A stretch of DNA of 64,000 nt from Escherichia coli. GTDB taxonomy: Bacteria > Pseudomonadota > Gammaproteobacteria > Enterobacterales > Enterobacteriaceae. Of the stretch, positions 1-18,017 are shown one piece after another. The translations under genes were made by a program, and so were the position numbers. The stretch lies in assembly GCF_001677475.2 (NCBI RefSeq), contig NZ_CP015229.1; one strand, written 5' to 3'. Every line of letters begins with the position of its first letter. The first letter of the stretch is position 1. The notes beneath the pieces are model-generated. The model searched no databases. It was not told the origin of the DNA and saw nothing but the letters and a program-made list of their open reading frames with translations.

Positions 1-332
1 AATTCTTTATCAATGTTGCGAACAAAGACACCTTCCCGGTAATGACCTTCTTTAGTTCTGCACTGATTAACTTCGCCGTTCCGTCTGGTGGCGGTCACTG
101 GGTTATTCAGGGACCTTTCGTGATACCCGCAGCCCAGGCGCTGGGCGCTGATCTCGGTAAATCGGTAATGGCGATCGCCTACGGCGAGCAATGGATGAAC
201 ATGGCACAACCGTTCTGGGCGCTGCCAGCACTGGCAATCGCCGGGCTCGGTGTCCGCGACATCATGGGCTATTGCATCACTGCCCTGCTCTTCTCTGGCG
301 TCATTTTCGTCATTGGTTTAACGCTGTTCTGA
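1..332 (+). CDS. atoE: Short-chain fatty acid transporter AtoE, C-terminal fragment (5' end lies outside the window)
   Basis: Open frame runs from the window edge to a stop at 330-332; hydrophobic membrane-protein C-terminus directly upstream of atoB as in the ato operon. Confidence 0.7.
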   Translation, partial: FFINVANKDTFPVMTFFSSALINFAVPSGGGHWVIQGPFVIPAAQALGADLGKSVMAIAYGEQWMNMAQPFWALPALAIAGLGVRDIMGYCITALLFSGVIFVIGLTLF

Positions 333-362
333 CGGCAACTCTACAGACAGAAGGAATATAAA

Positions 363-1547
363 ATGAAAAATTGTGTCATCGTCAGTGCGGTACGTACTGC
401 CATCGGTAGTTTTAATGGTTCACTCGCCTCCACCAGCGCCATCGATCTGGGGGCAACAGTAATTCAGGCCGCCATTGAACGCGCAAAACTCGATTCACAA
501 CACGTCGATGAAGTGATTATGGGTAACGTATTGCAGGCCGGGCTGGGGCAAAATCCGGCTCGTCAGGCACTGCTAAAAAGCGGACTGGCAGAAACGGTGT
601 GCGGATTTACGGTCAACAAAGTATGTGGTTCTGGTCTGAAAAGCGTGGCGCTTGCCGCCCAGGCAATTCAGGCCGGTCAGGCACAGAGCATCGTAGCGGG
701 TGGAATGGAGAACATGAGTTTAGCGCCCTATTTACTCGATGCAAAAGCACGCTCTGGTTATCGTCTTGGAGACGGACAGGTTTATGACGTGATCCTGCGC
801 GATGGCCTGATGTGCGCCACTCACGGTTATCATATGGGTATTACCGCCGAGAACGTTGCCAAAGAGTACGGAATTACCCGTGAAATGCAGGATGAACTGG
901 CGCTACATTCACAGCGTAAAGCGGCAGCAGCCATTGAGTCCGGTGCTTTTACCGTCGAAATTGTCCCGGTAAATGTTGTCACACGGAAGAAAAACATCGT
1001 CTTCGATCGCGATGAATTCCCGAAAGTAGATTCTACTGCAGAAGCTCTTGCTGCATTGCGCCCGGCCTTCGACAAAGCCGGAACGGTCACCGCCGGGAAC
1101 GCGTCTGGCATTAACGATGGGGCTGCCGCACTGGTGATTATGGAAGAATCTGCGGCGCTGGCGGCAGGCCTAAAACCACTGGCACGCATTAAAAGCTATG
1201 CCAGCGGTGGCGTGCTCCCTGCATTGATGGGTATGGGGCCAGTACCTGCCACGCAAAAAGCGTTACAACTGGCGGGGCTGCAACTGGCAGACATTGATCT
1301 CATCGAAGCCAATGAAGCATTTGCCGCGCAGTTCCTTGCCGTTGGGAAAACCCTGGGCTTTGATCCTGAGAAAGTGAATGTCAACGGCGGAGCCATCGCG
1401 CTGGGGCATCCTATCGGCGCCAGCGGTGCACGTATTCTGGTCACACTATTACATGCAATGCAGGCTCGCGATAAAACGCTGGGTCTGGCGACGCTGTGCA
1501 TTGGCGGCGGTCAGGGAATTGCGATGGTGATTGAACGATTGAATTAA
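363..1547 (+). CDS. atoB: Acetyl-CoA acetyltransferase (thiolase II)
   Basis: 394-aa ORF with thiolase hallmarks (NKVCGSGLK active-site Cys region, C-terminal CIGGGQG); AGGAA ribosome-binding site upstream. Confidence 0.95.
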
Positions 1548-1555
1548 CCAACAAA

Positions 1556-1590
1556 AACGCCCGATAGCGAAAGTCATCGGGCGTTTTCTT
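1556..1590 (+). terminator. Intrinsic terminator downstream of atoB
   Basis: Hairpin aacgcccgat/atcgggcgtt followed by TTTTCTT immediately after the atoB stop. Confidence 0.6.
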
Positions 1591-1620
1591 AAACATCGAC
1601 AGTGAAAGTAACCTCATTAA

Positions 1621-2157
1621 TTACCAGTCAAAACTTTTCACCAGCGTCAGCTCGCCAGCATTACGCATCGGTACAATAAATGTTTCCTGTTTCTCATTGA
1701 CCGATCCTTCATCGGTGATCAGCGTCAGTTGGGCAGTGGTTAATTCCGTTTCGCTGCGTCCGCCATAGTAGTTGATATACACCTGATAGCGCCCGTGAAC
1801 TGGCGCTGGCATGGCGAAAATCTCGGGGCCGTACCCCGTCGTGACATCCATATCCAGTGCGCCACTGTTTTTCAGCACCGTGTTACCGTACCAGGCGTGT
1901 TCGCCATCAGGCGTGACAACATGGAGATCGAGATCGGTATTGTCCGTATCCCACGAGAGAACCAGCCGTAAACGTGCACGAATCGTTCCTGTACCCGGCG
2001 TTGAGTAAAACTGCATTTTTTGTCGGCTTTGCCCATCCGGGCTGATGACCTGCACGCTGTTGCTGCCTTCAATGCCCTGACGCCAGCGGAAAGTAGGGCT
2101 ATTGCACCAAAACCTACAAGGCCATAAAACCGCCAGCCTTTCGCCTTTTTTAACCAC
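1621..2157 (-). CDS. yfaP: YfaP-like (DUF2135) protein, probably a 5'-truncated remnant
   Basis: 178-aa ORF resembling the C-terminal part of YfaP; the upstream part continues in another frame (ORF 1872-2210) and the gyrA terminator lies only about 110 bp away. Confidence 0.45.
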   Translation of the reverse strand: MVKKGERLAVLWPCRFWCNSPTFRWRQGIEGSNSVQVISPDGQSRQKMQFYSTPGTGTIRARLRLVLSWDTDNTDLDLHVVTPDGEHAWYGNTVLKNSGALDMDVTTGYGPEIFAMPAPVHGRYQVYINYYGGRSETELTTAQLTLITDEGSVNEKQETFIVPMRNAGELTLVKSFDW

Positions 2158-2263
2158 TCATTGCCACATTCCTTGTGTAAAGCCAGCCATTTTTTATGGG
2201 CGATGCACAACTTTATCGCGTCCTAATACGACAAAAGCCCAGACTTTGCAGCCTGGACTTTTC

Positions 2264-2292
2264 AATTCAAAAAAGGGAGATGGCTCCCTTTT
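2264..2292 (-). terminator. Intrinsic terminator of gyrA
   Basis: On the minus strand, hairpin AAGGGAGCCATCTCCCTT followed by a T-run, just downstream of the gyrA stop. Confidence 0.6.
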
Positions 2293-2309
2293 GACATGAA
2301 TAAATAAAA

Positions 2310-4937
2310 TTATTCTTCTTCTGGCTCGTCGTCAACGTCCACTTCCGGAGCGATTTCATCGTCCCCTTCCGCAGCACTGCCGTCGATGGTATCCAGATCT
2401 TCCTCGTCAACCGGTTCAGCAACACGTTGCAGACCCACTACGTTTTCATCTTCCGCAGTACGGATGAGGATCACGCCCTGGGTGTTACGGCCCACGATGC
2501 TGATTTCTGAAACGCGAGTACGTACCAGCGTACCGGCATCGGTGATCATCATGATCTGGTCGCAATCATCTACCTGCACCGCGCCAACCACTAAACCGTT
2601 ACGTTCGGTGACCTTGATGGAGATAACCCCTTTCGTCGCACGTGACTTGGTTGGGTATTCCGCCACTGCGGTACGTTTACCATAACCGTTCTGCGTTGCG
2701 GTGAGGATTGCGCCATCGCCACGAGGCACGATCAGAGAGACGACTTTATCGCCTTCGCCTAAGCGAATACCGCGCACACCTGTGGTATTGCAGCCCATCG
2801 CACGGACAGAAGACTCTTTAAAGCGCACCACTTTACCTTCGGCGGAGAACAGCATTACTTCGTCTTCGCCACTGGTCAGGTCAACGCCGATCAGCTCATC
2901 GCCTTCAACCAGCTTGATCGCCACTTTACCGGCGGTACGCAGACGGTTGAATTCGGTGAGGACGGTTTTCTTCACAGTACCGTTAGCCGTCGCCATGAAG
3001 ACTTTCACGCCTTCTTCAAACTCGGTCACTGGCAGGATCGCGGTGATACGTTCGTCCTGCTCCAGGGGCAGCAGGTTGACGATCGGACGACCACGTGCAC
3101 CACGAGAGGCTTCCGGCAACTGATAGACTTTCATCGAATAGACACGGCCACGGCTGGAGAAGCACAGGATATGGTCGTGGGTGTTCGCCACCAGCAGTCG
3201 GTCGATAAAGTCTTCTTCTTTAATACGTGCGGCAGATTTACCTTTCCCGCCACGACGCTGCGCTTCGTATTCCGAAAGCGGCTGGTACTTCACGTAGCCC
3301 TGGTGAGAGAGCGTCACGACCACATCTTCCTGAGTGATCAGATCTTCCAGGTTGATGTCTGCGCTGTTGGCAGTGATTTCAGTACGACGTTTGTCGCCGA
3401 ACTGTTCACGAACCAGTTCCAGCTCTTCGCGGATCACTTCCATCAGACGATCGGCGCTACCCAGAATACGCAGCAGTTCCGCGATCTGATCCAGCAGCTC
3501 TTTGTATTCATCGAGCAGTTTTTCGTGCTCAAGGCCGGTCAGTTTCTGCAAACGCAGATCCAGAATTGCCTGAGCTTGCTGTTCGGTCAGGTAGTACAGA
3601 CCGTCACGCACGCCGAACTCTGGCTCCAGCCATTCCGGACGCGCAGCATCGTCACCCGCACGCTCCAGCATCGCGGCAACGTTGCCCAGCTGCCACGGAT
3701 TAGCAACCAGCGCGGTTTTCGCTTCTGCAGGCGTCGGCGCATGACGGATCAGTTCAATGATCGGGTCGATGTTCGCCAGTGCTACGGCTAATGCTTCAAG
3801 GATATGAGCACGATCGCGGGCTTTACGCAGTTCGAAAATGGTACGACGGGTCACCACTTCGCGACGGTGACGGACAAACGCAGCGATAATGTCTTTCAGG
3901 TTCATGATCTTCGGCTGACCATGGTGCAATGCCACCATGTTGATACCGAAAGAAACCTGCAACTGGGTCTGGGAGTAGAGGTTGTTGAGCACCACTTCAC
4001 CGACCGCATCGCGTTTAACTTCAATCACGATGCGCATACCGTCTTTGTCAGACTCGTCACGCAGCGCGCTGATGCCTTCCACGCGTTTTTCTTTTACCAG
4101 TTCCGCAATCTTCTCGATCAGGCGCGCTTTGTTCACCTGATACGGAATTTCGTGGACGATAATGGTTTCACGCCCGGTTTTGGCGTCAACCTCCACTTCA
4201 GCACGGGCGCGGATATATACCTTGCCGCGACCGGTACGGTAAGCTTCTTCAATACCGCGACGACCGTTAATGATTGCCGCCGTCGGGAAGTCCGGCCCCG
4301 GGATGTGTTCCATCAGCCCTTCAATGCTGATGTCTTCATCATCGATATACGCCAGACAACCGTTGATGACTTCCGTCAGGTTGTGCGGCGGGATGTTGGT
4401 TGCCATACCTACGGCGATACCGGAAGAACCGTTCACCAGCAGGTTAGGAATTTTGGTTGGCATGACGTCGGGAATTTTTTCCGTGCCGTCATAGTTATCA
4501 ACGAAATCGACCGTCTCTTTTTCGAGATCGGCCATCAGTTCATGGGCAATTTTCGCCAGACGGATTTCCGTATAACGCATTGCCGCCGCAGAGTCGCCGT
4601 CGATGGAACCGAAGTTACCCTGACCGTCTACCAGCATGTAACGCAGCGAGAATGGCTGCGCCATACGGACGATCGTGTCATAAACCGCCGAGTCACCATG
4701 GGGATGGTATTTACCGATTACGTCACCAACGACACGGGCAGATTTTTTATAGGCTTTGTTCCAGTCATTGCCTAGTACGTTCATGGCGTAAAGTACGCGA
4801 CGGTGTACCGGCTTCAGGCCATCTCGGACATCTGGCAGCGCACGGCCAACAATGACCGACATCGCATAATCCAGATAGGAGCTCTTCAGCTCTTCCTCAA
4901 TGTTGACCGGTGTAATTTCTCTCGCAAGGTCGCTCAT
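2310..4937 (-). CDS. gyrA: DNA gyrase subunit A
   Basis: 875-aa ORF; N-terminus [47 protein letters not shown], active-site Tyr region and acidic C-terminal tail. Confidence 0.97.
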
Positions 4938-5083
4938 CTAACCGCTATCCCTCTACTGTATCCCGGATTCAAAGGTCGCAAATTATAACACAGCCGCGCA
5001 GATTGAGGTAAACCTATACGCTTTATTCACATCCAATGCCTGATATACTCGTTTGTCTTGCCAATTACGGAGTAGAAGTGCCA

Positions 5084-5806
5084 ATGAATGCCGAAAAATC
5101 GCCGGTAAACCATAACGTAGACCACGAAGAGATCGCTAAATTTGAAGCCGTCGCCTCCCGCTGGTGGGATCTTGAAGGTGAGTTCAAACCGCTGCACCGC
5201 ATTAACCCGCTGCGTCTGGGCTATATTGCCGAGCGTGCTGGCGGTTTATTTGGCAAAAAGGTGCTCGATGTCGGTTGTGGCGGCGGCATTCTGGCCGAGA
5301 GTATGGCGCGCGAAGGCGCGACGGTGACCGGTCTGGATATGGGCTTTGAGCCATTGCAGGTGGCGAAACTGCACGCACTGGAAAGCGGCATTCAGGTAGA
5401 TTACGTGCAGGAAACCGTGGAAGAGCACGCGGTAAAACATGCCGGGCAATATGATGTGGTGACCTGCATGGAGATGCTGGAGCACGTCCCCGATCCGCAG
5501 TCAGTGGTCAGAGCCTGTGCACAACTGGTGAAACCGGGCGGCGATGTCTTTTTCTCGACGCTTAACCGCAACGGCAAGTCATGGCTGATGGCGGTGGTTG
5601 GTGCGGAATATATTTTGCGCATGGTGCCTAAAGGCACGCATGATGTGAAGAAGTTTATTAAACCGGCAGAGCTGCTTGGCTGGGTAGATCAGACAAGCCT
5701 TAAAGAGCGACATATAACCGGGCTACATTACAACCCGATCACTAATTCCTTTAAGCTTGGCCCCGGCGTGGATGTGAACTATATGCTGCACACGCAGAAT
5801 AAATAA
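5084..5806 (+). CDS. ubiG: Bifunctional 3-demethylubiquinone / 2-polyprenyl-6-hydroxyphenol O-methyltransferase
   Basis: SAM-methyltransferase motif [13 protein letters not shown]; start set at ATG 5084 ([11 protein letters not shown]...), giving 240 aa rather than the longer ORF-track start. Confidence 0.93.
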
Positions 5807-5813
5807 AATTGTT

Positions 5814-5848
5814 TGCCGGATAAGGTGCTCGCACCACATCCGGCTACA
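5814..5848. repeat. REP-like palindromic element between ubiG and yfaL
   Basis: tgccggataagg...catccggctac with inverted GCCGGAT/ATCCGGC halves, resembling enterobacterial REP units. Confidence 0.45.
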
Positions 5849-5866
5849 ATGCCGGACGCAAAGCAG

Positions 5867-8800
5867 CTACCATTTCACCGTCATCGTCAAAAACCCTGTA
5901 GTCTGGGCAAAATCATCACTCCCTTTCTGCCACGCCATGCTACCACGCAGCGAAACTCGCTGACTGATATTGCCCGTTACTCCAACTTTTATTTCACCCC
6001 GTTGCTTCACCGCATCGTCACTGATAGTGCTGCCATCCTCTTCAATTTCCGTCGCATGGGGATCGTGATAATAATTCAGATCTAACGTTGGTGTGACATG
6101 AACAGCGGTACGCCATTCGCTGTGTAAACCCAGCCGCGTCTGAATATCATCACCCTGCGATTGTGACACGCGTGCATGGTTAGCGGCGGTAAAGTCATCC
6201 TGCAGCACGCCCTGATAAATCACCTGCGCCTGCGGTTCAATCACCACACCACGCTCCGGTAACCACTGATACCCCGCCTCCAGCGAGGCGATAATCCCCG
6301 ACGAGTGGTAATGATCTGTGCCATCGTCTTGTTCGGAAACATCATTGTTAAACCACGCGTATTGCAGCCAGCTATCCAGCCAGGCCCCCTGCTTCTGATT
6401 ACCGTGCTGAAACCAGCTTGAGGTCAGCCCAACGGCAAAACCGTGGTTCTGGTTATCGGCGCGAGTTCCAGTCATATTCGAGCGGCTGTCGCCCTGGTTA
6501 TCGCTGTAGCCACCTACAATCCCAAGCATCCACTCGCCATCATCGCCCCAGCGCCCCCTAAACAGGTCACCGCTAAGCTGCACCGTAGAAGTGTCTTCAT
6601 GCTGAGCCAGTTGCCTTGCCGCCGTGTAATGATAACGTCCGCCGATAACACGTAAATTCAGCGTCTGACCATCGCCACCAGCGTGATCGCGTCGCTCCAT
6701 CACAAACGCCTGATTTGCCGCCCGCAGGTTATTGAGATAACCGCCAACTTTGGCATTCAGCACCGGCTGGTAAGCGGGGATTGGATCGGGTGTTGGGTCA
6801 GGATCGGGTGTTGGGTCCGGGTCTGGATCAGGTGGCGATGGCGGCGTTACTTCTTGCGATCGCAGATACCAGTCGTTGTTATCTTCCACCAGCGTGTAGT
6901 CATACGCTCCCATGTTGACGTAGCCACTGCCTGCCAGACTGAACTGCGCATTGTTTTGAAACTGCGTGGGATCAGCTGCGAAATCAACCACTTTAATGCC
7001 TGTAGATGTCGGCTCACCAATCCCTGTAATGGGGTTAACCACAACCGTGGTATTGCCAGCAGTATTACCGTTCAACACCAACTGGTCGCTTGCTGAGTCA
7101 TCGCCGTTTAATTCGCTGTCGAGCAGTAACGTACCGCCGCCGGTGTAATCACCGTTTACCGTCAGCGTATCGCCAACGACGCCATTTTGCAGGCTAACCG
7201 CACCGGATGTATTGGTCAGATCACCATTAACCGTCACATCGGCAAGATAGGTCAGGTTGTCAGTTTCAAGGTTGGTATTAAGCTCACCTGTCAACGTCAC
7301 GCCATCGGTGGCATTCACCAGCGTCCCATCGCCGTTAAACAGTGAGGCATTAAGGGCGACAGAAGTATCCTGCCCGGTCAGGCGCAAAACCGTACCATCG
7401 CTGATGTCGATAGTGCCGCTGGAAGTAGCATCAATTGACTGAATATCCTGATCCGAGCCAGTAACGAACGTTGCCCCATCACCGACCCACAGTGACGAAG
7501 CATAAGGAAGAATATCCGCAACATCACCTTTCAGGGTGCCTTCTTCGACACGTACCGCCGACTGCGTTGTACCGCTGGCGGTCAGCTCCAGCGTGCCTGC
7601 ACCGGTTTTCGTCAGTGTGGTTCCCGCGTCCTGGTGCTGTCCACTGCTGTCGGCCATCAATGCGCCCCACTGCGTGTCGACCCCCGCATCAACTGCCACT
7701 TCACCGTCGGCGCGCATTTCAATATCACGCCCATGCTCAGTCGTTGTAGAGCGAGTATCGACATTGGCAGTAATCTCCATCACGCTTTCTTGTTGATTAT
7801 CGGTAAAGATAACCTGGCGGTTGTAATGGGTATCTCCAAGCTGCGAGTTGTCGCTCACCATCAGCGTACCGGAGGCGATTTGCGTTGTGCCGAGGTATTG
7901 ATTGTCATTTGCCAGGCTGACCTGCCCGTCACCCGCATCGATCACCACGTAGACGCCATCTTTCCCGTCGCCGCCGATATGCATATCGTTTCCGCCTGCA
8001 AGATCCACCACATCCTGACTGCCGATAACCGTACCGCCGTTGCCGCTGACTTCAAGGCCATCGTTGTATGATGTGCCGCTCTGCCAGGTGGAGAAATCAG
8101 AGAGATCGAGCACACCGCCGTTTAACACAATCGACTGCGGATCGTCCTGGAGAGCGGCAAGATCTGCCGCGTCGCCTTCCAGTGAAAGCACCGCACCATC
8201 ATCAACGACTATATCGCCGGTTAGCGCCATCGACTGCGCCCCCGCCAGCACATAGCTGCCGTTTTGCGCAATGGTGAGCTGACCAGCACCTTTGATGGTG
8301 CCAGCAAAACTGCCTTGATTAACAGTAACATTGCCACCAGCATCGATATTTAAAGTGCCATTCTGAAAGCCCGTCAATGAGTGCACAAAGGTTTGTTGGG
8401 TGGAGCCAACATTTAGCTCTGCCTGATTCTGGTACTTATCAATACTCCCTATCGTCAGACCGTAGCAGTCTTGCGGATCGTCCTGGCAATGCGTATCGCC
8501 GACATTCATCAGGGAGTTGCTGCGGCCCAGGGTAACTTCACCGTTTTCAATCTGCATCTCACCAGTAAAGTCATTGTTATCTGCATTAAGTACCAGATCG
8601 CCGGAACCTGTTTTGGTGATTAACCCGGTACCTGCAATAGAGTCAACAGCTCCGTCATTCTCTGTATTGCCGATAACCAGCGTTTTTCCGTCGGCAATAT
8701 CAAAGGTAACTTCACTTAAGCCGAGATACATAAAGCCACCCGCCGCAGTAGAAGGACCATCTCCATAGCCTGCTGCGCTATTGTTCTCATCCACTAACAC

Positions 8801-9607
8801 GCCGCCGTTCTGGCTGTAGCTGTCATCAACAGAAATATCAATAAGATAGGGAGCCGTCGCGCTATTGGTATATATCGCCCCGCCATAACCTTCAGCAGTG
8901 TTATTTGTAAAGGCGGTGTTATTTATTATCGTATAACCTGAAGGATGCGTGATATCGCTATTATTATCTGTGACATCAATTGCGCCGCCATCGCCATCAC
9001 TGTAACTTGTTGATGTATATGCCTGGTTATTGTTAAAAATATCATCACTTAAATAGATATCATTATTGATGGTATAAATTGCACCACCTTTACCGTCATT
9101 AGCGATGTTATTGCTAAACACGGCGTTAGTGACACGTAAATCGACGGTACCAGTATCATTAGTACCAGAAGAATAGATTGCGCCACCATAACCGCCTGCG
9201 ACGTTACCAGAAAAAATAACATCAGTAAGATTCAGCGTTGAGTTTTCTTTAGCAAATATTGCCCCACCGTTATTATATTCTCCTGTAACGGTGTTATTGG
9301 CAAACAGAGTCATTCCTGTGTTATTTTCTGGTAATAGTGAAAATTCCGCTCCCTGTTGCAAAAATACGGCTCCTCCGCTGGCATTATTGGTCATATCAGA
9401 AAAAACCAGCCATTGCCCATCGGCGACACTCCAGTCCTGCGTAATGCCTGAAAGGCTTTGCCTGCTGGCGTGACAACTCGCTTTGATATCATATCCCTGG
9501 CATAAATCAATGGCCGCCGCGACACCGTTAGCAGAGAAAAGAGATGCAATCATTGACGGGAGTAGAGATAAATACTCCTTGCGTAGAAAGATAATCCGCA
9601 TATTCAT
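5867..9607 (-). CDS. yfaL: Autotransporter (type Va) adhesin: GGAIY-repeat passenger, Pro/Asp/Thr-rich linker, C-terminal beta-barrel
   Basis: 1246-aa ORF with signal peptide, repeated G(Y/K/D)GGAI(Y/F) motifs, PDPDPTPDP linker, and beta-barrel domain ending in ...TVKW. Confidence 0.9.
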   Translation of the reverse strand: MNMRIIFLRKEYLSLLPSMIASLFSANGVAAAIDLCQGYDIKASCHASRQSLSGITQDWSVADGQWLVFSDMTNNASGGAVFLQQGAEFSLLPENNTGMTLFANNTVTGEYNNGGAIFAKENSTLNLTDVIFSGNVAGGYGGAIYSSGTNDTGTVDLRVTNAVFSNNIANDGKGGAIYTINNDIYLSDDIFNNNQAYTSTSYSDGDGGAIDVTDNNSDITHPSGYTIINNTAFTNNTAEGYGGAIYTNSATAPYLIDISVDDSYSQNGGVLVDENNSAAGYGDGPSTAAGGFMYLGLSEVTFDIADGKTLVIGNTENDGAVDSIAGTGLITKTGSGDLVLNADNNDFTGEMQIENGEVTLGRSNSLMNVGDTHCQDDPQDCYGLTIGSIDKYQNQAELNVGSTQQTFVHSLTGFQNGTLNIDAGGNVTVNQGSFAGTIKGAGQLTIAQNGSYVLAGAQSMALTGDIVVDDGAVLSLEGDAADLAALQDDPQSIVLNGGVLDLSDFSTWQSGTSYNDGLEVSGNGGTVIGSQDVVDLAGGNDMHIGGDGKDGVYVVIDAGDGQVSLANDNQYLGTTQIASGTLMVSDNSQLGDTHYNRQVIFTDNQQESVMEITANVDTRSTTTEHGRDIEMRADGEVAVDAGVDTQWGALMADSSGQHQDAGTTLTKTGAGTLELTASGTTQSAVRVEEGTLKGDVADILPYASSLWVGDGATFVTGSDQDIQSIDATSSGTIDISDGTVLRLTGQDTSVALNASLFNGDGTLVNATDGVTLTGELNTNLETDNLTYLADVTVNGDLTNTSGAVSLQNGVVGDTLTVNGDYTGGGTLLLDSELNGDDSASDQLVLNGNTAGNTTVVVNPITGIGEPTSTGIKVVDFAADPTQFQNNAQFSLAGSGYVNMGAYDYTLVEDNNDWYLRSQEVTPPSPPDPDPDPTPDPDPTPDPIPAYQPVLNAKVGGYLNNLRAANQAFVMERRDHAGGDGQTLNLRVIGGRYHYTAARQLAQHEDTSTVQLSGDLFRGRWGDDGEWMLGIVGGYSDNQGDSRSNMTGTRADNQNHGFAVGLTSSWFQHGNQKQGAWLDSWLQYAWFNNDVSEQDDGTDHYHSSGIIASLEAGYQWLPERGVVIEPQAQVIYQGVLQDDFTAANHARVSQSQGDDIQTRLGLHSEWRTAVHVTPTLDLNYYHDPHATEIEEDGSTISDDAVKQRGEIKVGVTGNISQRVSLRGSMAWQKGSDDFAQTTGFLTMTVKW
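6783..6835. repeat. Imperfect 18-bp tandem repeat inside yfaL (encodes the PDPDPTPDPDPTPDP linker)
   Basis: ggatcgggtgttgggtca followed by ggatcgggtgttgggtcc and a degenerate third copy. Confidence 0.6.
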
Positions 9608-10134
9608 CTAACCATCATTTTATATAAGACGACGTATTTAATCGCATTATACGATATGGGTTATCTTTCTTTTGTAAATTGTTCAACCCGATGCAATGGC
9701 TATTTTGTTATTATTTGATGAATAGTATCAGTGCGTCATAATTCAAGTTAATAACCTTAAGGGATATCAGTTATATTTAAACTAAATTAAAGTAATGAAT
9801 AATTTTCTTATAATATAAGGTAAATTAACAAAATGGCTTCGCATTTAACAATAACCGAATAGAAAACAACCATTTCAGCATCAACAATCGCTTACATTCG
9901 CTTATATATTGACCACAACTGATACATCAGATTATGTGATGACTCGTGCTTAGATCAATTTTTGCAATGATTAGCAAAAAGATTAATAAACCATCTATAT
10001 CAATTTATCTAACCTATTCTGCCGTTCAAGAAATCGCCGAACAGTTATTTTTAACAAATTTTTCTCTTCCCATTGACTTTCCCGGACACCTTGTCTGACC
10101 TAAGGTGCGCGAAAGCCACTTTTTCCTTCCTGAG

Positions 10135-10155
10135 TTATCCACAAAGTTATGCACT
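10135..10155 (+). promoter_or_regulatory. Two adjacent DnaA-box-like sites upstream of nrdA
   Basis: TTATCCACA (10135-10143, matches TTATNCACA) and TTATGCACT (10147-10155, 8/9 match); DnaA control of nrdAB is established. Confidence 0.55.
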
Positions 10156-10173
10156 TGCAAGAGGGCCATTTTC

Positions 10174-10220
10174 ACACTATCTTGCAGTGAATCCCAAACA
10201 TACCCCCTATATATAGTGTT
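10174..10220 (+). promoter_or_regulatory. Two NrdR-box-like palindromes in the nrdA promoter/5' leader
   Basis: acactatcttgcagtg (10174-10189) and ccctatatatagtgtt (10205-10220), about three helical turns apart, upstream of the nrdA start at 10297. Confidence 0.5.
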
Positions 10221-10296
10221 CTAAGCAGCTTCCCGTACTACAGGTAGTCTGCATGAAACTATTGCGGAAAGAATTCCAAAAACAGGTACGACATAC

Positions 10297-12582
10297 ATGA
10301 ATCAGAATCTGCTGGTGACAAAGCGCGACGGTAGCACAGAGCGCATCAATCTCGACAAAATCCATCGCGTTCTGGATTGGGCGGCAGAAGGACTGCATAA
10401 CGTTTCGATTTCCCAGGTCGAGCTGCGCTCCCACATTCAGTTTTATGACGGTATCAAGACCTCTGACATCCACGAAACCATTATCAAGGCTGCCGCAGAC
10501 CTGATCTCCCGTGATGCGCCGGATTATCAGTATCTCGCCGCGCGCCTGGCGATCTTCCACCTGCGTAAAAAAGCCTACGGCCAGTTTGAGCCGCCTGCGC
10601 TGTACGACCACGTGGTGAAAATGGTCGAGATGGGCAAATACGATAATCATCTGCTGGAAGACTACACGGAAGAAGAGTTCAAGCAGATGGACACGTTTAT
10701 CGATCACGACCGTGATATGACCTTCTCTTATGCTGCCGTTAAGCAGCTGGAAGGCAAATATCTGGTACAGAACCGCGTGACCGGCGAAATCTACGAAAGC
10801 GCCCAGTTCCTTTATATTCTGGTTGCCGCGTGCCTGTTCTCGAACTACCCGCGTGAAACGCGCCTGCAATATGTGAAGCGTTTTTACGACGCGGTTTCCA
10901 CATTTAAAATTTCGCTGCCGACGCCAATCATGTCCGGCGTGCGTACCCCGACTCGTCAGTTCAGCTCCTGCGTACTGATCGAGTGCGGCGACAGCCTGGA
11001 TTCCATCAACGCCACCTCCAGCGCGATTGTGAAATATGTTTCCCAGCGTGCCGGGATCGGCATCAACGCCGGGCGTATTCGTGCGCTGGGTAGCCCGATT
11101 CGCGGTGGCGAAGCGTTCCATACCGGCTGCATTCCGTTCTACAAACATTTCCAGACAGCGGTGAAATCCTGCTCTCAGGGCGGCGTGCGCGGCGGTGCGG
11201 CAACGCTGTTCTACCCAATGTGGCATCTGGAAGTGGAAAGCCTGCTGGTGTTGAAAAACAACCGTGGTGTGGAAGGCAACCGCGTGCGCCATATGGACTA
11301 CGGGGTACAGATCAACAAACTGATGTATACCCGCCTGCTGAAAGGTGAAGATATCACTCTGTTCAGCCCGTCCGACGTACCGGGGCTGTACGACGCGTTC
11401 TTCGCCGATCAGGAAGAGTTTGAACGTCTGTATACCAAATATGAGAAAGACGACAGCATCCGTAAGCAGCGTGTGAAAGCCGTTGAGCTGTTCTCGCTGA
11501 TGATGCAGGAACGTGCGTCTACCGGTCGTATCTATATTCAGAACGTTGACCACTGCAATACCCATAGCCCGTTTGATCCGGCCATCGCGCCAGTGCGCCA
11601 GTCAAACCTGTGCCTGGAGATAGCCCTGCCGACCAAACCGCTGAACGACGTCAACGACGAGAACGGTGAAATCGCGCTGTGTACGCTGTCTGCTTTCAAC
11701 CTGGGCGCAATTAATAGCCTGGATGAACTGGAAGAGCTGGCAATTCTGGCGGTTCGTGCACTTGACGCGCTGCTGGATTATCAGGATTACCCGATCCCGG
11801 CCGCCAAACGTGGAGCGATGGGTCGTCGTACGCTGGGTATTGGTGTGATCAACTTCGCTTACTACCTGGCGAAGCATGGTAAACGCTACTCCGACGGCAG
11901 CGCCAACAACCTGACGCATAAAACCTTCGAAGCGATTCAGTATTACCTGCTGAAAGCGTCTAATGAGCTGGCGAAAGAGCAAGGCGCGTGCCCGTGGTTT
12001 AACGAAACCACTTACGCGAAAGGGATCCTGCCGATCGATACTTATAAGAAAGATCTGGATGCCATCGCTAATGAGCCGCTGCATTACGACTGGGAAGCTC
12101 TGCGTGAGTCAATCAAAACGCACGGCCTGCGTAACTCCACGCTTTCTGCTCTGATGCCCTCCGAGACTTCTTCGCAGATCTCTAACGCCACTAACGGTAT
12201 TGAACCGCCGCGCGGTTACGTCAGCATCAAAGCGTCGAAAGACGGTATTCTGCGCCAGGTGGTGCCGGATTACGAGCATCTGCACGACGCCTATGAGCTG
12301 CTGTGGGAAATGCCGGGTAACGATGGCTACCTGCAACTGGTGGGTATCATGCAGAAATTTATCGATCAGTCGATCTCTGCCAACACCAACTACGATCCGT
12401 CACGCTTCCCGTCAGGAAAAGTGCCGATGCAGCAGTTGCTGAAAGACCTGCTCACCGCCTACAAATTCGGGGTCAAAACGCTGTATTATCAGAACACCCG
12501 TGACGGTGCTGAAGACGCACAAGACGATCTGGTGCCGTCAATCCAGGATGATGGCTGCGAAAGCGGCGCATGTAAGATCTGA
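10297..12582 (+). CDS. nrdA: Ribonucleoside-diphosphate reductase 1 alpha subunit (class Ia)
   Basis: 761-aa ORF; N-terminal ATP-cone (MNQNLLVTKRDGSTERINLDKIHRVL), catalytic core, C-terminal Cys pair. Confidence 0.97.
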   Translation: MNQNLLVTKRDGSTERINLDKIHRVLDWAAEGLHNVSISQVELRSHIQFYDGIKTSDIHETIIKAAADLISRDAPDYQYLAARLAIFHLRKKAYGQFEPPALYDHVVKMVEMGKYDNHLLEDYTEEEFKQMDTFIDHDRDMTFSYAAVKQLEGKYLVQNRVTGEIYESAQFLYILVAACLFSNYPRETRLQYVKRFYDAVSTFKISLPTPIMSGVRTPTRQFSSCVLIECGDSLDSINATSSAIVKYVSQRAGIGINAGRIRALGSPIRGGEAFHTGCIPFYKHFQTAVKSCSQGGVRGGAATLFYPMWHLEVESLLVLKNNRGVEGNRVRHMDYGVQINKLMYTRLLKGEDITLFSPSDVPGLYDAFFADQEEFERLYTKYEKDDSIRKQRVKAVELFSLMMQERASTGRIYIQNVDHCNTHSPFDPAIAPVRQSNLCLEIALPTKPLNDVNDENGEIALCTLSAFNLGAINSLDELEELAILAVRALDALLDYQDYPIPAAKRGAMGRRTLGIGVINFAYYLAKHGKRYSDGSANNLTHKTFEAIQYYLLKASNELAKEQGACPWFNETTYAKGILPIDTYKKDLDAIANEPLHYDWEALRESIKTHGLRNSTLSALMPSETSSQISNATNGIEPPRGYVSIKASKDGILRQVVPDYEHLHDAYELLWEMPGNDGYLQLVGIMQKFIDQSISANTNYDPSRFPSGKVPMQQLLKDLLTAYKFGVKTLYYQNTRDGAEDAQDDLVPSIQDDGCESGACKI

Positions 12583-12608
12583 TAATCCCCCAGCCTTTGC
12601 ACCAAACC

Positions 12609-12648
12609 GTCCCCTCTCCCCTTGCGGGAGAGGGTTAGGGTGAGGGGT
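12609..12648. repeat. GC-rich palindromic element between nrdA and nrdB
   Basis: cccctctcccCTTGCgggagaggg followed by ttagggtgagggg; stem cctctccc/gggagagg. Confidence 0.4.
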
Positions 12649-12670
12649 AATAAAACCACAGGACACATTC

Positions 12671-13801
12671 ATGGCATATACCACCTTTTCACAGACGAAA
12701 AATGATCAGCTCAAAGAACCGATGTTCTTTGGTCAGCCGGTCAACGTGGCTCGCTACGATCAGCAAAAATATGACATCTTCGAAAAGCTGATCGAAAAGC
12801 AGCTCTCTTTCTTCTGGCGTCCGGAAGAAGTTGACGTTTCTCGTGACCGTATCGATTACCAGGCATTGCCTGAACACGAAAAACACATCTTTATCAGCAA
12901 CCTGAAATATCAGACGCTGCTGGACTCAATTCAGGGTCGCAGCCCAAACGTGGCACTGCTGCCGCTGATCTCGATCCCGGAACTGGAGACCTGGGTCGAA
13001 ACCTGGGCGTTCTCAGAAACGATTCATTCCCGTTCCTATACTCATATCATTCGTAATATCGTTAACGATCCGTCTGTTGTCTTTGACGATATCGTCACCA
13101 ACGAGCAGATCCAGAAACGTGCGGAAGGGATCTCCAGCTATTACGATGAACTGATCGAAATGACCAGCTACTGGCATCTGCTGGGCGAAGGCACCCACAC
13201 CGTTAACGGTAAAACCGTAACCGTTAGCCTGCGCGAGCTGAAGAAAAAACTCTATCTCTGCCTGATGAGCGTTAACGCGCTGGAAGCGATCCGCTTCTAC
13301 GTTAGCTTCGCTTGCTCCTTTGCGTTCGCCGAACGCGAACTGATGGAAGGTAACGCCAAAATTATTCGCCTGATTGCCCGCGACGAAGCCCTGCACCTGA
13401 CCGGTACTCAGCATATGCTGAATCTGCTGCGCAGCGGCGCGGATGATCCGGAGATGGCGGAAATTGCCGAAGAATGTAAGCAGGAGTGCTATGACCTGTT
13501 TGTCCAGGCGGCACAGCAAGAGAAAGACTGGGCGGATTATCTGTTCCGTGACGGTTCGATGATTGGTCTGAATAAAGATATTCTCTGCCAGTACGTTGAA
13601 TACATCACCAATATCCGCATGCAGGCAGTCGGTTTGGATCTGCCGTTCCAGACGCGCTCCAACCCGATCCCGTGGATCAACACCTGGTTGGTGTCTGATA
13701 ACGTGCAGGTTGCTCCGCAGGAAGTGGAAGTCAGTTCTTATCTGGTCGGGCAGATTGACGCGGAAGTGGACACCGACGATTTGAGTAACTTCCAGCTCTG
13801 A
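12671..13801 (+). CDS. nrdB: Ribonucleoside-diphosphate reductase 1 beta subunit
   Basis: 376-aa ORF with diiron-tyrosyl radical protein features; immediately downstream of nrdA. Confidence 0.97.
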
Positions 13802-14055
13802 TGGCCCGCGTTACCCTGCGCATCACTGGCACACAACTGCTGTGCCAGGATGAACACCCTTCCCTTCTGGCGGCGCTGGAATCCCACAATGTGGCGGTTG
13901 AGTACCAGTGCCGCGAAGGTTATTGCGGCTCCTGTCGCACCCGACTGGTCGCAGGTCAGGTGGACTGGATTGCCGAACCGTTAGCCTTTATTCAGCCGGG
14001 GGAAATTTTGCCCTGTTGTTGCCGGGCAAAAGGCGATATTGAAATCGAGATGTGA
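13801..14055 (+). CDS. yfaE: 2Fe-2S ferredoxin involved in NrdB cofactor maintenance
   Basis: 84-aa ORF with Cys cluster CREGYCGSC...CCC; start overlaps the nrdB stop. Confidence 0.88.
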   Translation: MARVTLRITGTQLLCQDEHPSLLAALESHNVAVEYQCREGYCGSCRTRLVAGQVDWIAEPLAFIQPGEILPCCCRAKGDIEIEM

Positions 14056-14071
14056 ATTGGTTGTTGTGCCA

Positions 14072-14103
14072 GATACAACGCTTATACGTCTTATCTGGCC
14101 TAC
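14072..14103. terminator. Hairpin between convergent yfaE and inaA (probable bidirectional terminator)
   Basis: Inverted repeat gccagata...tatctggc in the 53-bp convergent gap. Confidence 0.4.
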
Positions 14104-14108
14104 AACGA

Positions 14109-14759
14109 TTACATGGCGTAGTAATACGCTTTCACCTGCTCCCAGTCCGCTTTGGGGATTGGCTCCAGATATTTTTCCAGCTGGCGGAAGTCATGATTAA
14201 TCGCTTTATTGCGACGCAAGCGGCGACGACTTTTCTCCAGGTCAAGAAAACCAGATTCTGCTTTACCTTCTGTTTTCACATAGATATGGCGAACATAACA
14301 ACAGCCATGCTGACGATTAACGCTATGCATTTTCTTAAACGCCAGTGCCACTGCTTTCAACATGGCTTGCCGTACTTCGTCAGAATAAGGCGATACTGCA
14401 TGCTGGGCATACCAGTCAGCAATGCTGATGAACCCCGCCATATCTTCAGTCACCAGCAACGCGCGCCATTCACCCTCAATTTTCACCGCTTCACCAAAAA
14501 CGATCTTCGGCACGATGACACCGGCCCGTTCTAGTTCTTTAATTACCGCAACCTCACGGACAATCGTTGGTCGGCCGAACGGATAACGTACAGAATGAAA
14601 CAGATGATGTGTCATGCGCTTTACATACAGCTTTTTGCCGTTGCGCTCGACGCATTGCACACCGCTCATACCATTACGGCGATAGTTAGGCTCTTCAACC
14701 CAGTCGCCCTCTGTTGCCCACCAGTGATTAAATTCGTCGTACTTTGCTGAAACTGCCAT
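14109..14759 (-). CDS. inaA: Acid-inducible, Mar/Sox/Rob-regulated lipopolysaccharide-kinase-like protein InaA
   Basis: 216-aa ORF MAVSAKYDEFNHWWATEGDWVEEPNYRRNGMSGVQ... ending ...VKAYYYAM. Confidence 0.9.
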   Translation of the reverse strand: MAVSAKYDEFNHWWATEGDWVEEPNYRRNGMSGVQCVERNGKKLYVKRMTHHLFHSVRYPFGRPTIVREVAVIKELERAGVIVPKIVFGEAVKIEGEWRALLVTEDMAGFISIADWYAQHAVSPYSDEVRQAMLKAVALAFKKMHSVNRQHGCCYVRHIYVKTEGKAESGFLDLEKSRRRLRRNKAINHDFRQLEKYLEPIPKADWEQVKAYYYAM

Positions 14760-14973
14760 ACCCTATTGCCTGTCGTTTTTATTAACGACAATGACTATAG
14801 GTGGTTACCTGAGGAAAATCTTAATGAAACGTGTCGTATTAATGAATTTCTTTTGCCGCTACTAGTGTGACACCGCTTTTGCCCTTCATTTGCAGCGCAT
14901 AGATTCCACCAGCCACTACCACTAATAGTGCGCCCAGCAGATAAAATGTGAATTTAATCAGGCGGATACAGCG

Positions 14974-15180
14974 ATGAATTTTATGCGACAGGGATTAGGC
15001 ATCGCCTTATTACCAGAGTTAACGCTGAAAACCATTGCAGGTGAATTGTGTTCCGTTCCTCACGAACCAATCTTCTATCGACAGATTTCGTTGTTGGCTA
15101 AAGAAAAGCCGGTAGAAGGCAGTCCACTGTTTTTACTACAAACGTGTACGGAACAACTCGTGGTGAGTGGAAAAATTTGA
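14974..15180 (+). pseudogene. yfaH: LysR-family regulator fragment (substrate-binding domain C-terminus only)
   Basis: 68-aa ORF ...GLGIALLPELTLK... typical of a LysR-type C-terminal domain; no HTH-encoding N-terminus upstream. Confidence 0.55.
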
Positions 15181-15248
15181 TGTGAGACATGAGATTGATG
15201 ACAAATGTAAGATTGCCTGATTCGCCACACTTAGTTGGCCTGTAGTCT

Positions 15249-15338
15249 TTACCATGCGTAATAATTCGTTTTCACCTGATTTTGGTCCACTTTGTGAATT
15301 AGCGATATATATTTATCCAATTTAGGGAAGTGACAATG
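15249..15338 (-). pseudogene. Decayed 3' remnant of an inaA paralog
   Basis: Minus-strand translation HCHFPKLDKYISLIHKVDQNQVKTNYYAW* aligns with the InaA C-terminus HDFRQLEKYLEPIPKADWEQVKAYYYAM*; DNA also aligns with 14111-14190; an in-frame stop lies just upstream. Confidence 0.5.
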
Positions 15339-15645
15339 ACTCCAGGTAGAAACCGGTATGAAGCGCCCGACTCACTGTCAAAACCGATTGTTGAGAGTAA
15401 TGACACTCCGGCGAACAGTACACAGTTTACTCTGGAGCCATTCTCAATCTGCAAGTGGGATGCCTAATAACTTGTCAGGGAAGTTATCAATATCTGTTTG
15501 TTACTTATTACCGTGTTTATTAACAATAATGATACTTTCTAACATGCGTAAAGGTCTTCGTAATAAAATGAGCTAAATTTGATAGTGAATATATTCTGCA
15601 AAGATTAAATTGTATCTAGTTAACTCACAATACAAGGAATCATTT

Positions 15646-16716
15646 ATGCCAAATACATCTATTCAATTATCTCGCTGTAATATTTTACAAAATAATAAAT
15701 TGCAAACAGCAGAAATTTACAAAGAATCACAACAAACCGCGAAACTTGAGATTTTTTGCAATGAGTTTCTAAAAATATCTCAAAGTAGATTCGGGTTATC
15801 AACCTCAGCAGACAACATAGCTAATTTATTGGCTTTTTTCACGAAAGCCTCAGATGAAATTGATAGTATCAAAACCCAAAAAATTGACGTTCACAGTTAT
15901 GGTTTCGTACCAATAAGACATTTTGTCGAGCATGTCATAACGTATAAAAATGAATTTGCAGAAGATTATGAACCCTATACCCTTACCTTTACCCGAGGTG
16001 AAAACAACGAAGGTGTTTTGAGTATCGAAAGCAAAGAAGGGTTTCTTTCAGAAAGAACAATAAATTTAAATGAATATGAAACTGCAATTAACATCATCAA
16101 TGAGCATGTTGCAAAAGAAAATATCAATAACAAGATCCAAACATTGACAGACAAAGACACACCAAAAATAACCAACTCTGACAAAATTTATAAATTTATC
16201 CACGAGTTAAATATAAGAACTCAACTTTACAGCAAGCAAAAAGAATATACAGACCTGCTACTACATTCTGAGAAAAATACAGAATGGTACAAATACACAT
16301 CCTCCGAGGAACGCTATGATGTATTTAAGAATTCTTCTAAAAAAATTGAAAATACCTACAAGCAAATTGTGCAAGCGCAGAAAAAATTGAAGCAAATGAA
16401 ATACATCAATAAATTAAGTGGTGAGCTTATCGATATCGCCGACAAAAAGTTAGCACCATTAATAAATGATAGTTTCAGCTATACACGAGATTTCTTTGCT
16501 TACTCAAAAAATGAAAAAAATATCTTCACATTTGATAATTCTAAGTTTTTAGATCCAAAGGAAAAAGAAGGTTTAATGATACAACACAGCAATGGGCAAC
16601 TGGTTATTACTGGTAAATATTGCCCTGAAGGTATGCAAACAGCATTCACCCAAGAACAATATGATAAATTAATAAGATACATTAATATTTTCTTTACTTT
16701 CCAGAAATGCGAATAA
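15646..16716 (+). CDS. Hypothetical protein, AT-rich orphan, Lys/Asn/Glu/Ile/Tyr-rich, no signal peptide or TM segment
   Basis: Long intact ORF in a visibly AT-rich segment; ATG at 15646 preceded by AAGGAA (ORF-track start 15610 is TTG); no family recognised. Confidence 0.6.
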   Translation: MPNTSIQLSRCNILQNNKLQTAEIYKESQQTAKLEIFCNEFLKISQSRFGLSTSADNIANLLAFFTKASDEIDSIKTQKIDVHSYGFVPIRHFVEHVITYKNEFAEDYEPYTLTFTRGENNEGVLSIESKEGFLSERTINLNEYETAINIINEHVAKENINNKIQTLTDKDTPKITNSDKIYKFIHELNIRTQLYSKQKEYTDLLLHSEKNTEWYKYTSSEERYDVFKNSSKKIENTYKQIVQAQKKLKQMKYINKLSGELIDIADKKLAPLINDSFSYTRDFFAYSKNEKNIFTFDNSKFLDPKEKEGLMIQHSNGQLVITGKYCPEGMQTAFTQEQYDKLIRYINIFFTFQKCE

Positions 16717-16903
16717 TACTGTACATTATAAACTGCATTACAATTTATTATTGAGCCCTATTCATACTGTTTAAAGAATAACAATACCCAGTGTTAGCTT
16801 TCCTAACAAATGAGTTTTACGCAAATATGTTGGCATCTTTTTTAACAGGATGCTCAGGTGAATGAATAGAATAACCGGTAGTAGCATTATTTCGCTTTAG
16901 CTG

Positions 16904-16927
16904 AGGATGGCGCATGAACGCCATCCT
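16904..16927. terminator. Hairpin downstream of glpQ (end of glpTQ operon)
   Basis: Inverted repeat aggatggcg/cgccatcct just 3' of the glpQ stop; weak T-run. Confidence 0.4.
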
Positions 16928-16936
16928 GCAGTAGCA

Positions 16937-18013
16937 TTACTCTTTATTAAGGAATTTTACTGCCTTATCAGGGAAATCAGTAAACAGCCCATTTACACCC
17001 GCTTTGTCATACAGAACATCATATAACTGATTCACATCAGTAGTGTATTCAGGCAGTTTATCTGACCGCACGGTATAAGGATGCACTACCAGTTTATTCT
17101 GCTGAGCATCTTGCACCATGCCAGTGAGTTTGATATTACCCGGCTGCGATGTCTCCTCAATCAACATATGGTAATCCGGGCCAATACCATCTGCATATTC
17201 CGCCACCTGTTTCATGGCACCCGGCTTAAACATCCAGTCGTAGTTGTAATTAACCCAGCTTCCGTCCGGCTGTTTCTGCTGCGTTTCATTCCAGTCGGTA
17301 TAGGCAATCAGCTGTACCAGATTGAGATCCATGCCCATTTTAGGTTCCAGCTCATTCTTAATACGCTTCAGCTCATCAGCATCAAAACATTGTAAATAAA
17401 CTTTGTCGTCCTTACCGGTGTAACCATATTTCTTCAGCACTTCCAGCGTTTTTGCCGCAATATCCTTCCCTTCCTGATGATGGAACCACGGTGCTTTAAT
17501 TTCTGGATAGATACCGATATTTTTCCCGGTAGAGTGATTTAACCCCTGAACAAATTCAATCTCTTCTTCAAAGGTGTGCACCCGGAAGTCGGACTTACCC
17601 ATTGGGAAACGCCCCGGATAAGTCTGCACTTTTTTACCGTTTTCAATATCGAAACCTTCGGTAAATTTCAGCGACTTAATTTCATCCAGCGTGAAATCTA
17701 TCGCGTAGTAACGACCGTCTTTGCGCGCCCGATCCGGGAAACGATCGGCAACATCAGTAACACGATCGAGGTAATGGTCATGCAGAACAACCAGATGGTC
17801 GTCTTTGGTCATCACCAAATCCTGTTCCAGATAATCCGCTCCCTGCGCATACGCCATCGCTTTTGCTGGCAGCGTATGCTCCGGCAAATATCCACTGGCA
17901 CCGCGATGGGCGATGACTATTTTTTCGTTGCTGTCCGCCGCCATTGCACTGCTTCCCATGACTATAGTGCTCATCATGATCGCCATGCTAAGGTTTTTCA
18001 GCGTCAATTTCAT
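16937..18013 (-). CDS. glpQ: Periplasmic glycerophosphodiester phosphodiesterase
   Basis: Start MKLTLKNLSMAIMMSTIVMGSSAMA (signal peptide), HRG catalytic motif; start trimmed from ORF-track 18070 to 18013. Confidence 0.95.
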   Translation of the reverse strand: MKLTLKNLSMAIMMSTIVMGSSAMAADSNEKIVIAHRGASGYLPEHTLPAKAMAYAQGADYLEQDLVMTKDDHLVVLHDHYLDRVTDVADRFPDRARKDGRYYAIDFTLDEIKSLKFTEGFDIENGKKVQTYPGRFPMGKSDFRVHTFEEEIEFVQGLNHSTGKNIGIYPEIKAPWFHHQEGKDIAAKTLEVLKKYGYTGKDDKVYLQCFDADELKRIKNELEPKMGMDLNLVQLIAYTDWNETQQKQPDGSWVNYNYDWMFKPGAMKQVAEYADGIGPDYHMLIEETSQPGNIKLTGMVQDAQQNKLVVHPYTVRSDKLPEYTTDVNQLYDVLYDKAGVNGLFTDFPDKAVKFLNKE

Positions 18014-18017
18014 GCCA

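Follow-up and report, generated by a model that had tools for sequence, protein, structure and literature searches.

Does the short tandem repeat that lies within an autotransporter gene of this E. coli chromosome change in copy number between strains, and does the encoded protein change in length with it? We examined the repeat and its gene in the whole stretch of DNA analysed (64 kb, hereafter the window) and compared the gene across complete E. coli genomes. The ORF that carries the repeat has ubiG and gyrA as neighbours, and the gene order gyrA-ubiG-yfaL is common to the window, K-12 and at least 20 other genomes. Of 5,426 complete E. coli genomes, 5,419, K-12 and O157:H7 included, have a homologue annotated as "AIDA-I family autotransporter adhesin YfaL/EhaC". 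Together, these neighbours and annotations support the identification of the gene as the YfaL autotransporter in an earlier note on this DNA. Pfam analysis of the ORF returned PF03797, PF18883 (AC_1), PF12951 (PATR) and PF02415 (Chlam_PMP). Based on position and sequence, with a best identity of 96.3%, the assignment of the ORF as the orthologue of yfaL/EhaC, a type Va (classical) autotransporter of the AIDA-I family, is supported. In the closest alleles the RefSeq start lies two codons downstream of the first ATG, which gives a protein of 1244 aa, and the N-terminus, MNMRIIFLRKEYLSLLPSMIASLFSANGVAAA, looks by eye like an extended signal peptide.

The passenger contains the motifs GYGGAIY, GKGGAIY, GDGGAID and GYGGAIY at residues 139, 172, 205 and 240; one more GGAI lies at residue 114. 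A regular-expression search recovered the repeated G(Y/K/D)GGAI(Y/F) motifs that had been described previously, and these match the Pfam Chlam_PMP repeat. With PF12951 (PATR), PF02415 (Chlam_PMP) and five GGAI motifs, the YfaL passenger is predicted to consist of beta-helical repeats. Downstream of the passenger, the AC_1 domain ends in a conserved DWYLRS strand just upstream of a proline-rich spacer, TPPSPPDPDPDPTPDPDPTPDPIP, whose 24 residues include 13 Pro, 6 Asp and 3 Thr. An AlphaFold model covering the C-terminal 450 residues of YfaL (mean pLDDT 86.6) places, in fragment numbering, a beta-rich autochaperone domain first, followed by a coil at 125-149, a helix at 156-170 and the barrel strands. 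The coil corresponds to the spacer; it is the sole low-confidence coil of the model, with 10-residue block means of pLDDT 62, 48 and 52, and it holds all stretches with pLDDT below 50. The helix, according to the model, should plug the barrel pore. The placing of the linker between passenger and beta-barrel was thus supported, since the spacer (residues 921-944) falls between AC_1 (797-906) and the barrel domain (985-1223), and the AlphaFold model agrees. The features are collected in Table 1.

Table 1. Coordinates of the yfaL/ehaC gene, its domains and its tandem repeat in the window
Feature	Position	Strand	Evidence and remarks
yfaL/ehaC CDS	5867..9607	minus	ORF list and translation; 1246 aa from first ATG; Pfam; annotated homologous loci
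Passenger region with five GGAI motifs, residues 114-246	8870..9268	minus	Regular expression; Pfam PF02415, E=1.9e-11
Autochaperone domain AC_1 (PF18883), residues 797-906	6890..7219	minus	Pfam E=9e-18; 4MEE alignment; model beta strands
Proline-rich spacer coding region, residues 921-944	6776..6847	minus	24 aa, TPPSPPDPDPDPTPDPDPTPDPIP; indel hotspot of the gene
Exact 18-bp tandem repeat	6783..6817	minus	Tandem Repeats Finder (TRF): 1.9 copies, 100% matches, score 70
Repeat unit 1	6817..6800	minus	GACCCAACACCCGATCCT
Repeat unit 2	6799..6782	minus	GACCCAACACCCGATCCA; final base unlike unit 1
Predicted alpha-helix, fragment residues 156-170	6710..6754	minus	AlphaFold secondary structure; 4MEE alignment
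Autotransporter beta-barrel translocator domain PF03797, residues 985-1223	5939..6655	minus	Pfam E=6.5e-33; AlphaFold strands

The period-18 repeat of yfaL is the only TRF array scoring at least 50 in the 64-kb window. On the minus strand, exactly two copies of the 17-mer GACCCAACACCCGATCC are present, at 6801..6817 and 6783..6799. Searching the 64 kb for this 17-mer with a tolerance of up to two mismatches gave these 2 matches alone, where shuffled sequence predicts 0.01. Since the unit is found nowhere else in the 64 kb, gene conversion from another copy in the window was rejected. On the coding strand, 6840..6776 reads CA TCG CCA CCT GAT CCA GAC CCG / GAC CCA ACA CCC GAT CCT / GAC CCA ACA CCC GAT CCA / ATC CCC, where the slashes mark the exact repeat register. 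This stretch translates to SPPDPDPDPTPDPDPTPDPIP, which contains exactly the linker peptide PDPDPDPTPDPDPTPDP that had been proposed; the tract from CCT GAT onwards encodes PDPDPDPTPDPDPTPDPIP. An 18-bp tandem repeat at 6776-6840 had been correctly located, as TRF detects an exact period-18 array at 6783..6817. Its description as two almost perfect units and a degenerate third one also stands, but the register does not: the exact repeat is shifted from the PDPDPT frame, in which the first two units differ at three synonymous positions, and it is followed by the degenerate partial copy ATC CCC.

To characterize the variation in copy number, the 311 bp around the spacer were used as a query against a survey set of 5,426 complete E. 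coli genomes, with matches in 5,419. The subject spans were 305, 311, 313, 328/329 and 335 bp, so the spacer is polymorphic in length, and in twelve alleles sampled across the ranking the DWYL-to-YQP segments measured 93, 99, 102, 117 and 123 nt. Among the sampled types, the exact DNA repeat is confined to the window-type allele, defined as the one that ends in PDPIPAYQP. Synthetic forms of the window allele carrying one or three units served as search queries, and both retrieved natural alleles of exactly those structures. In the retrieved alleles, GAC CCA ACA CCC GAT CCT is present in 1, 2 or 3 copies and the rest of the tract is unchanged. Within the best 60 matches, exactly one unit was found in 22 genomes and exactly three units in 10. 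The two-unit type accounts for about 1,198 genomes when counted as the band of at least 95% identity, in which nine of nine sampled rows span 311 bp; the one-unit count was taken from the listing, as the identity bands of that query are swollen by places pieced together from two partial matches. Variants with other than two units therefore make up about 32 of about 1,230 genomes of the window allele type (~2.6%). A synthetic four-unit query returned no window-type allele with four units among its best 15 matches, only two-unit alleles as overlapping two-piece matches, and a four-unit case with divergent flanks may exist.

The comparison of copy number across E. coli genomes that the earlier note had suggested thus revealed that the number is not identical in all alleles. 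The length variation it predicted was found in alleles with one, two and three copies of the 18-bp unit, some of them on nearly identical gene backgrounds, and the linker changes in length with the repeat number as had been claimed, with spacers of 18, 24 or 30 residues for one, two and three units. The view of the repeat as prone to slippage was upheld in part: the variation is real, but with only about 32 of about 1,230 genomes varying the locus is not hypermutable. Since the variation is infrequent, "prone to" is better read as an ordinary minisatellite-like hotspot than as a hypermutable contingency locus.

The spacer also varies in other allele types. In K-12-type and B2-type alleles, a (PDPDPT)3-4 peptide repeat is encoded by synonymously diverged codons. 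The K-12-type allele of CFS3246 carries an exact 18-bp duplication of GATCCTGATCCCACGCCG, which gives a segment of 135 nt, and that of WP2-S18-ESBL-08 carries an in-frame 6-bp GATCCT duplication; judged from their sequences, we regard these duplications as fresh, independent events. Allele L020 has the exact two-unit repeat inside a K-12-like frame and is plausibly an intermediate between K-12-type and window-type alleles. Across 21 alleles up to ~18% divergent, nearly all indels fall in the spacer stretch of ~75 bp; those beyond it are one 6-bp site, one 3-bp site and a 168-bp deletion that reaches into the spacer with its 3' end. At least nine in-frame spacer lengths exist in E. coli, with DWYL-to-YQP segments that include 81, 93, 99, 102, 117, 123 and 135 nt, and a 129-nt form occurs in Escherichia sp. 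Length differences among intact alleles are always multiples of 3 bp. Frame-breaking spacer variants occur in L019 (11-bp deletion) and L028 (1-bp loss), both annotated as pseudogenes in "CM" shotgun-chromosome records, and these may be sequencing errors. A contig scan with a gapped anchor pattern gave no matches, although the pattern fits the window and 19 of 20 yfaL loci, and a scan with an ungapped 21-mer anchor gave one divergent E. coli record only (L021). In the literature searched, no paper on repeat polymorphism in yfaL/EhaC was found, which is not proof of novelty.

Based on these results, we consider it probable that the YfaL/EhaC spacer contains an in-frame tandem repeat whose whole units are gained or lost by occasional slippage or unequal exchange, resulting in length polymorphism. 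The spacer would link the beta-helical passenger, at its autochaperone end, with the barrel-plugging helix; this would place it where the barrel opens at the cell surface, and it may act there as a flexible or polyproline-like stalk. Because adjacent units are identical and lie in a low-complexity run of CCN-GAY/ACN codons, occasional misalignment during replication would add or remove whole units, either by slipped-strand mispairing or by unequal exchange between adjacent identical units. The expected outcome would be the alleles with one, two and three units and their spacers of 18, 24 and 30 residues. As the unit is six codons long, its gain or loss preserves both frame and protein and shifts the spacer by 6 residues per unit. 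The frame is always kept, which makes this a length polymorphism and not a phase-variation switch; on/off phase variation was rejected because every intact variant is a multiple of 3 bp. The rarity of copy-number variants implies a low rate of slippage, with a single length fixed in most lineages. The repeat itself, where it lies and the natural series of copy numbers on almost identical backgrounds were all observed directly, and slippage is the mutational mechanism that we infer. The polyproline-II conformation extends by ~0.31 nm per residue, and each unit would alter the stalk by ~1.9 nm if the spacer formed a polyproline-II rod. A change in spacer length could conceivably alter the reach of the passenger, and the copy-number variation may be neutral.

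Given the position of the repeat between passenger and barrel, we compared it with known autotransporter systems. Among solved structures, the one closest to the C-terminal 450 residues of YfaL is the AIDA-I transport unit (PDB 4MEE; E=4.4e-36), which shares the autochaperone strand WYL[T/R]S, the pore helix and the barrel, and aligns on either side of the YfaL spacer. AIDA-I has ~10 residues at this site that are not proline-rich, whereas YfaL has 24 (18-30 in the window allele type); the spacer thus behaves as an insertion of variable length that the family tolerates. In TibA, the order is passenger, junction, proline-rich domain (627-677) and membrane-embedded domain (PMC3835316). TibA and YfaL both belong to the AIDA-I family and have a proline-rich tract between the junction or autochaperone region and the membrane domain. 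The proline-rich domain of TibA is, however, ~50 residues long against 24 in YfaL, and the portions of the literature consulted report no TibA copy-number series. In pertactin of Bordetella (prn), the copy number of region 2, (PQP)n, and of region 1, (GGFGP)n, drives much of the allelic variation (PMC3966384). Both pertactin and YfaL are type Va autotransporters with short, in-frame, proline-containing repeats that vary in number between isolates, and the Pfam Pertactin family PF03212 is among the precomputed matches on YfaL fragments. The pertactin units are 9 bp (PQP) or 15 bp (GGFGP) in contrast to the 18-bp PDPDPT-type unit of YfaL, and the YfaL tract, unlike the pertactin repeats, follows the autochaperone domain and directly precedes the pore helix. 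The likeness of the YfaL tract to the TibA and pertactin tracts is one of position and composition only. Bacterial VNTR or contingency loci share with YfaL the head-to-tail identical units, the gain and loss of whole units and the homoplasy across backgrounds. The YfaL tract differs from them in having only 1-3 units of 18 bp, changes that stay in frame, a low population frequency and no on/off switch.

The spacer site was also compared in about a dozen distant AIDA-I-type homologues (~30% identity), obtained from a word-indexed protein search dominated by E. coli/Shigella fragments. Between (N/D)WYL(R/T)S and Y(Q/R)P these proteins have ~8 to ~60 residues. The site is Pro-rich in P0081, P0092, P0098, P0106 and P0115, with an array of ~8 units, PDPEPTPDPDPT..., in P0081 and the sequence PDPTPDPTP in P0092. 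The varied size of the spacer among distant homologues marks the site as a family-wide, length-tolerant insertion point.

It is possible, though in our judgement unlikely, that spacer length is functionally tuned or immune-selected, either for projection past the LPS/O-antigen or as an exposed epitope; such selection would add to slippage and not replace it. The coexistence of at least nine in-frame spacer lengths in E. coli with the frame almost always kept, the spacers of ~8 to ~60 residues at the same site in distant homologues, including (PDPxPT)n arrays of ~8 units, and the variation of pertactin in PQP/GGFGP repeat number (PMC3966384) are all in line with selection on length. However, purifying selection on the downstream barrel would by itself be expected to keep lengths in frame, length variants are rare, and AIDA-I functions with almost no spacer. 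A change in an exposed epitope has been proposed for the pertactin repeats; YfaL showed no evidence of immune- or vaccine-driven selection.

The backgrounds of the length variants bear on whether the repeat itself mutates. Alleles L011 (two units) and L015 (one unit) are separated by 3 SNPs over the part of the 3.7-kb CDS outside the spacer and by 4 over the 6.3-kb locus, none of them within 600 bp of the spacer. The three-unit allele L018 matches both of them at the proximal left-flank sites and the right-flank sites. Allele L014 (one unit) differs from L016 and L017 (three units) by 24-29 SNPs, and the flanks of 600 bp on either side differ at no more than one variable site. The one-unit alleles L013, L014 and L015 have gene backgrounds 168-185 SNPs apart, and one-unit alleles span at least five flank-identity classes. 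Among O26/O111 EHEC strains, DEC9B and O111:H8 TW05614 have one unit, and O26 RM10386, O26 RM8426 and O111:H11 88-19539 have two. Taken together with the events in K-12-type alleles and the concentration of indels in the spacer, these backgrounds favour several independent gains and losses of whole units.

Alternatively, the length classes could be old, stable alleles scattered solely by homologous recombination, with a repeat that does not mutate on observable timescales. The gene yfaL is strongly mosaic: over its full length the window allele reaches no more than 96.3% identity to any E. coli allele, but in the 311 bp that surround the spacer the figure rises to 99.7%, and short recombination tracts could, given this mosaicism, account for some of the sharing of copy number across haplotypes. 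Such a history would also suit the three-unit allele L018, which has proximal left-flank and right-flank sites in common with L011 and L015 and thus shares their flank haplotype only in part, as well as the ~97% of window-type alleles that carry two units. A conversion tract between L011 and L015, however, which differ by one unit and 3-4 SNPs, would have to carry the unit alone. The presence of one-unit alleles in at least five flank classes speaks against recombination as the sole source, as do the K-12-type alleles L026 and L027, which duplicate their own local sequence exactly and for which no other allele class seen could be the donor. Exchange of old alleles alone is therefore, in our opinion, a rather improbable explanation.

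In its strongest form, the selective reading would make the spacer a tunable stalk in which frequent unit change produces mixed-length subpopulations within each culture and length co-varies with O-antigen or capsule thickness, setting the projection of the adhesin. We hold this to be very unlikely; if true, the mixed subpopulations could account for the ragged breaks in the tract that hundreds of short-read Shigella sonnei and E. coli assemblies show. Errors of sequencing or assembly in a low-complexity, GC-rich tract are a scarcely credible source of the copy-number differences, for although the frame-breaking L019 and L028 come from "CM" whole-genome-shotgun records and are possibly errors, and contigs assembled from short reads of Shigella sonnei and of some E. 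coli end within the tract, the identical one-unit allele is found in 11 complete genomes from various laboratories and countries and the three-unit allele in 10 genomes, the differences are exact whole units in genes annotated as intact, and the 18-bp period is far below any read length.

The occasional gain and loss of whole units, which we favour, makes the YfaL repeat an ordinary, low-frequency, in-frame minisatellite in the spacer of a known adhesin, a kind of feature that is well known. It adds one further documented in-frame minisatellite in a surface adhesin, which on its own matters little. The different YfaL lengths of strains (1238-1256 aa for intact alleles) are mostly due to the 75-bp tract and so should not be taken for truncations. 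Within STEC/B1-type lineages, where for example O26/O111 strains divide into one-unit and two-unit forms, the tract might serve as an inexpensive marker for typing. YfaL serves as a surface-display scaffold, and the natural alleles indicate that spacers of 18 to ~36 residues are tolerated. If spacer length were shown to tune the exposure of the adhesin, the locus would offer a simple natural model of how autotransporters cope with LPS thickness.

Comparison over the whole yfaL coding sequence, in which the fetched loci L005, L006, L007 and L012 were set against L001 and others, revealed that E. coli alleles of this autotransporter gene fall into two deeply divergent families, a B2/APEC/UPEC-type and a K-12/O157/B1-type. 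The two families differ at ~640–690 of 3,750 sites (~17–18%), which is unusually high for an E. coli chromosomal gene; in contrast, the adjoining ubiG and gyrA are conserved.

A K-12-like allele from strain VTB97022v (L008) lies a single SNP from K-12 yfaL, apart from an in-frame deletion of 168 bp that leaves a product of 1194 aa. The deletion is bounded by two 12-bp direct repeats (CTGATCCCACGC), one located in the autochaperone domain (ADPTQ) and the other within the proline-rich spacer that precedes the pore helix and barrel, and it removes the DWYLRS strand. A metagenomic protein (P0008) carries a similar deletion, with GAYDYT fused to PAYQP. A mechanical listing of open reading frames also returned one antisense to yfaL, although nothing suggests that it is a real gene.

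Coordinates of the deletion allele and of the antisense open reading frame
Feature	Sequence	Position	Strand	Description
L008 yfaL	NZ_CP178670.1, strain VTB97022v	locus 370..3954		K-12-like allele with deletion
ORF, 137 codons, GTG start	window	6683..7096	+	overlaps the spacer, antisense to yfaL

Frameshifts located within the spacer were observed in two yfaL variants: L019 (NZ_CM160084.1), a 3-unit allele, has lost 11 bp, and L028 (NZ_CM136148.1), which is of the K-12 type, lacks a single base pair. Proteins P0023, P0027, P0028, P0057, P0067 and P0074 were grouped with these variants, and the repeat is read out of frame in several Logan/ENA fragments, e.g., TQHPILTQHPIQ. These frameshifts represent either genuine inactivating slippage or homopolymer errors in the C-rich tract. 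An ENA metagenome contig encodes a 624-aa protein (P0031) that consists of a B2-type YfaL passenger and the start of the spacer, up to PDPEPTPDP, followed by an unrelated Asn/Lys-rich sequence of a different Pfam family (PF25833); it is probably a chimeric assembly with its junction at the proline-rich tract.

The spacer is also a breakpoint in hundreds of Shigella sonnei draft assemblies and in some from E. coli (proteins P0012 and P0024–P0075; loci L022–L025, from S. sonnei short-read assemblies). The upstream contigs stop at varying points, with each residue between DWYLRSQ and TPDPDPTPDP represented among their ends, while the downstream contigs start at APTPAYQP. No IS sequence was visible in the contig ends read at the broken spacer, and the upstream contig, 1.9 kb long, is truncated on its far side as well. 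The breaks may be due to IS insertion, coverage dropout or length heterogeneity.

Among 5,426 complete E. coli genomes, no close match was found to the gyrA, ubiG and yfaL segment of the window (2310..9607), the best identities being 97.9% for gyrA-ubiG and 96.3% for yfaL. Despite lower whole-gene identity, E. coli PE164 is 99.7% identical over 311 bp around the spacer. Judged from these alignments, the window seems to derive from an Escherichia lineage not represented among the E. coli genomes compared, and its yfaL looks like a mosaic, recombinant allele.
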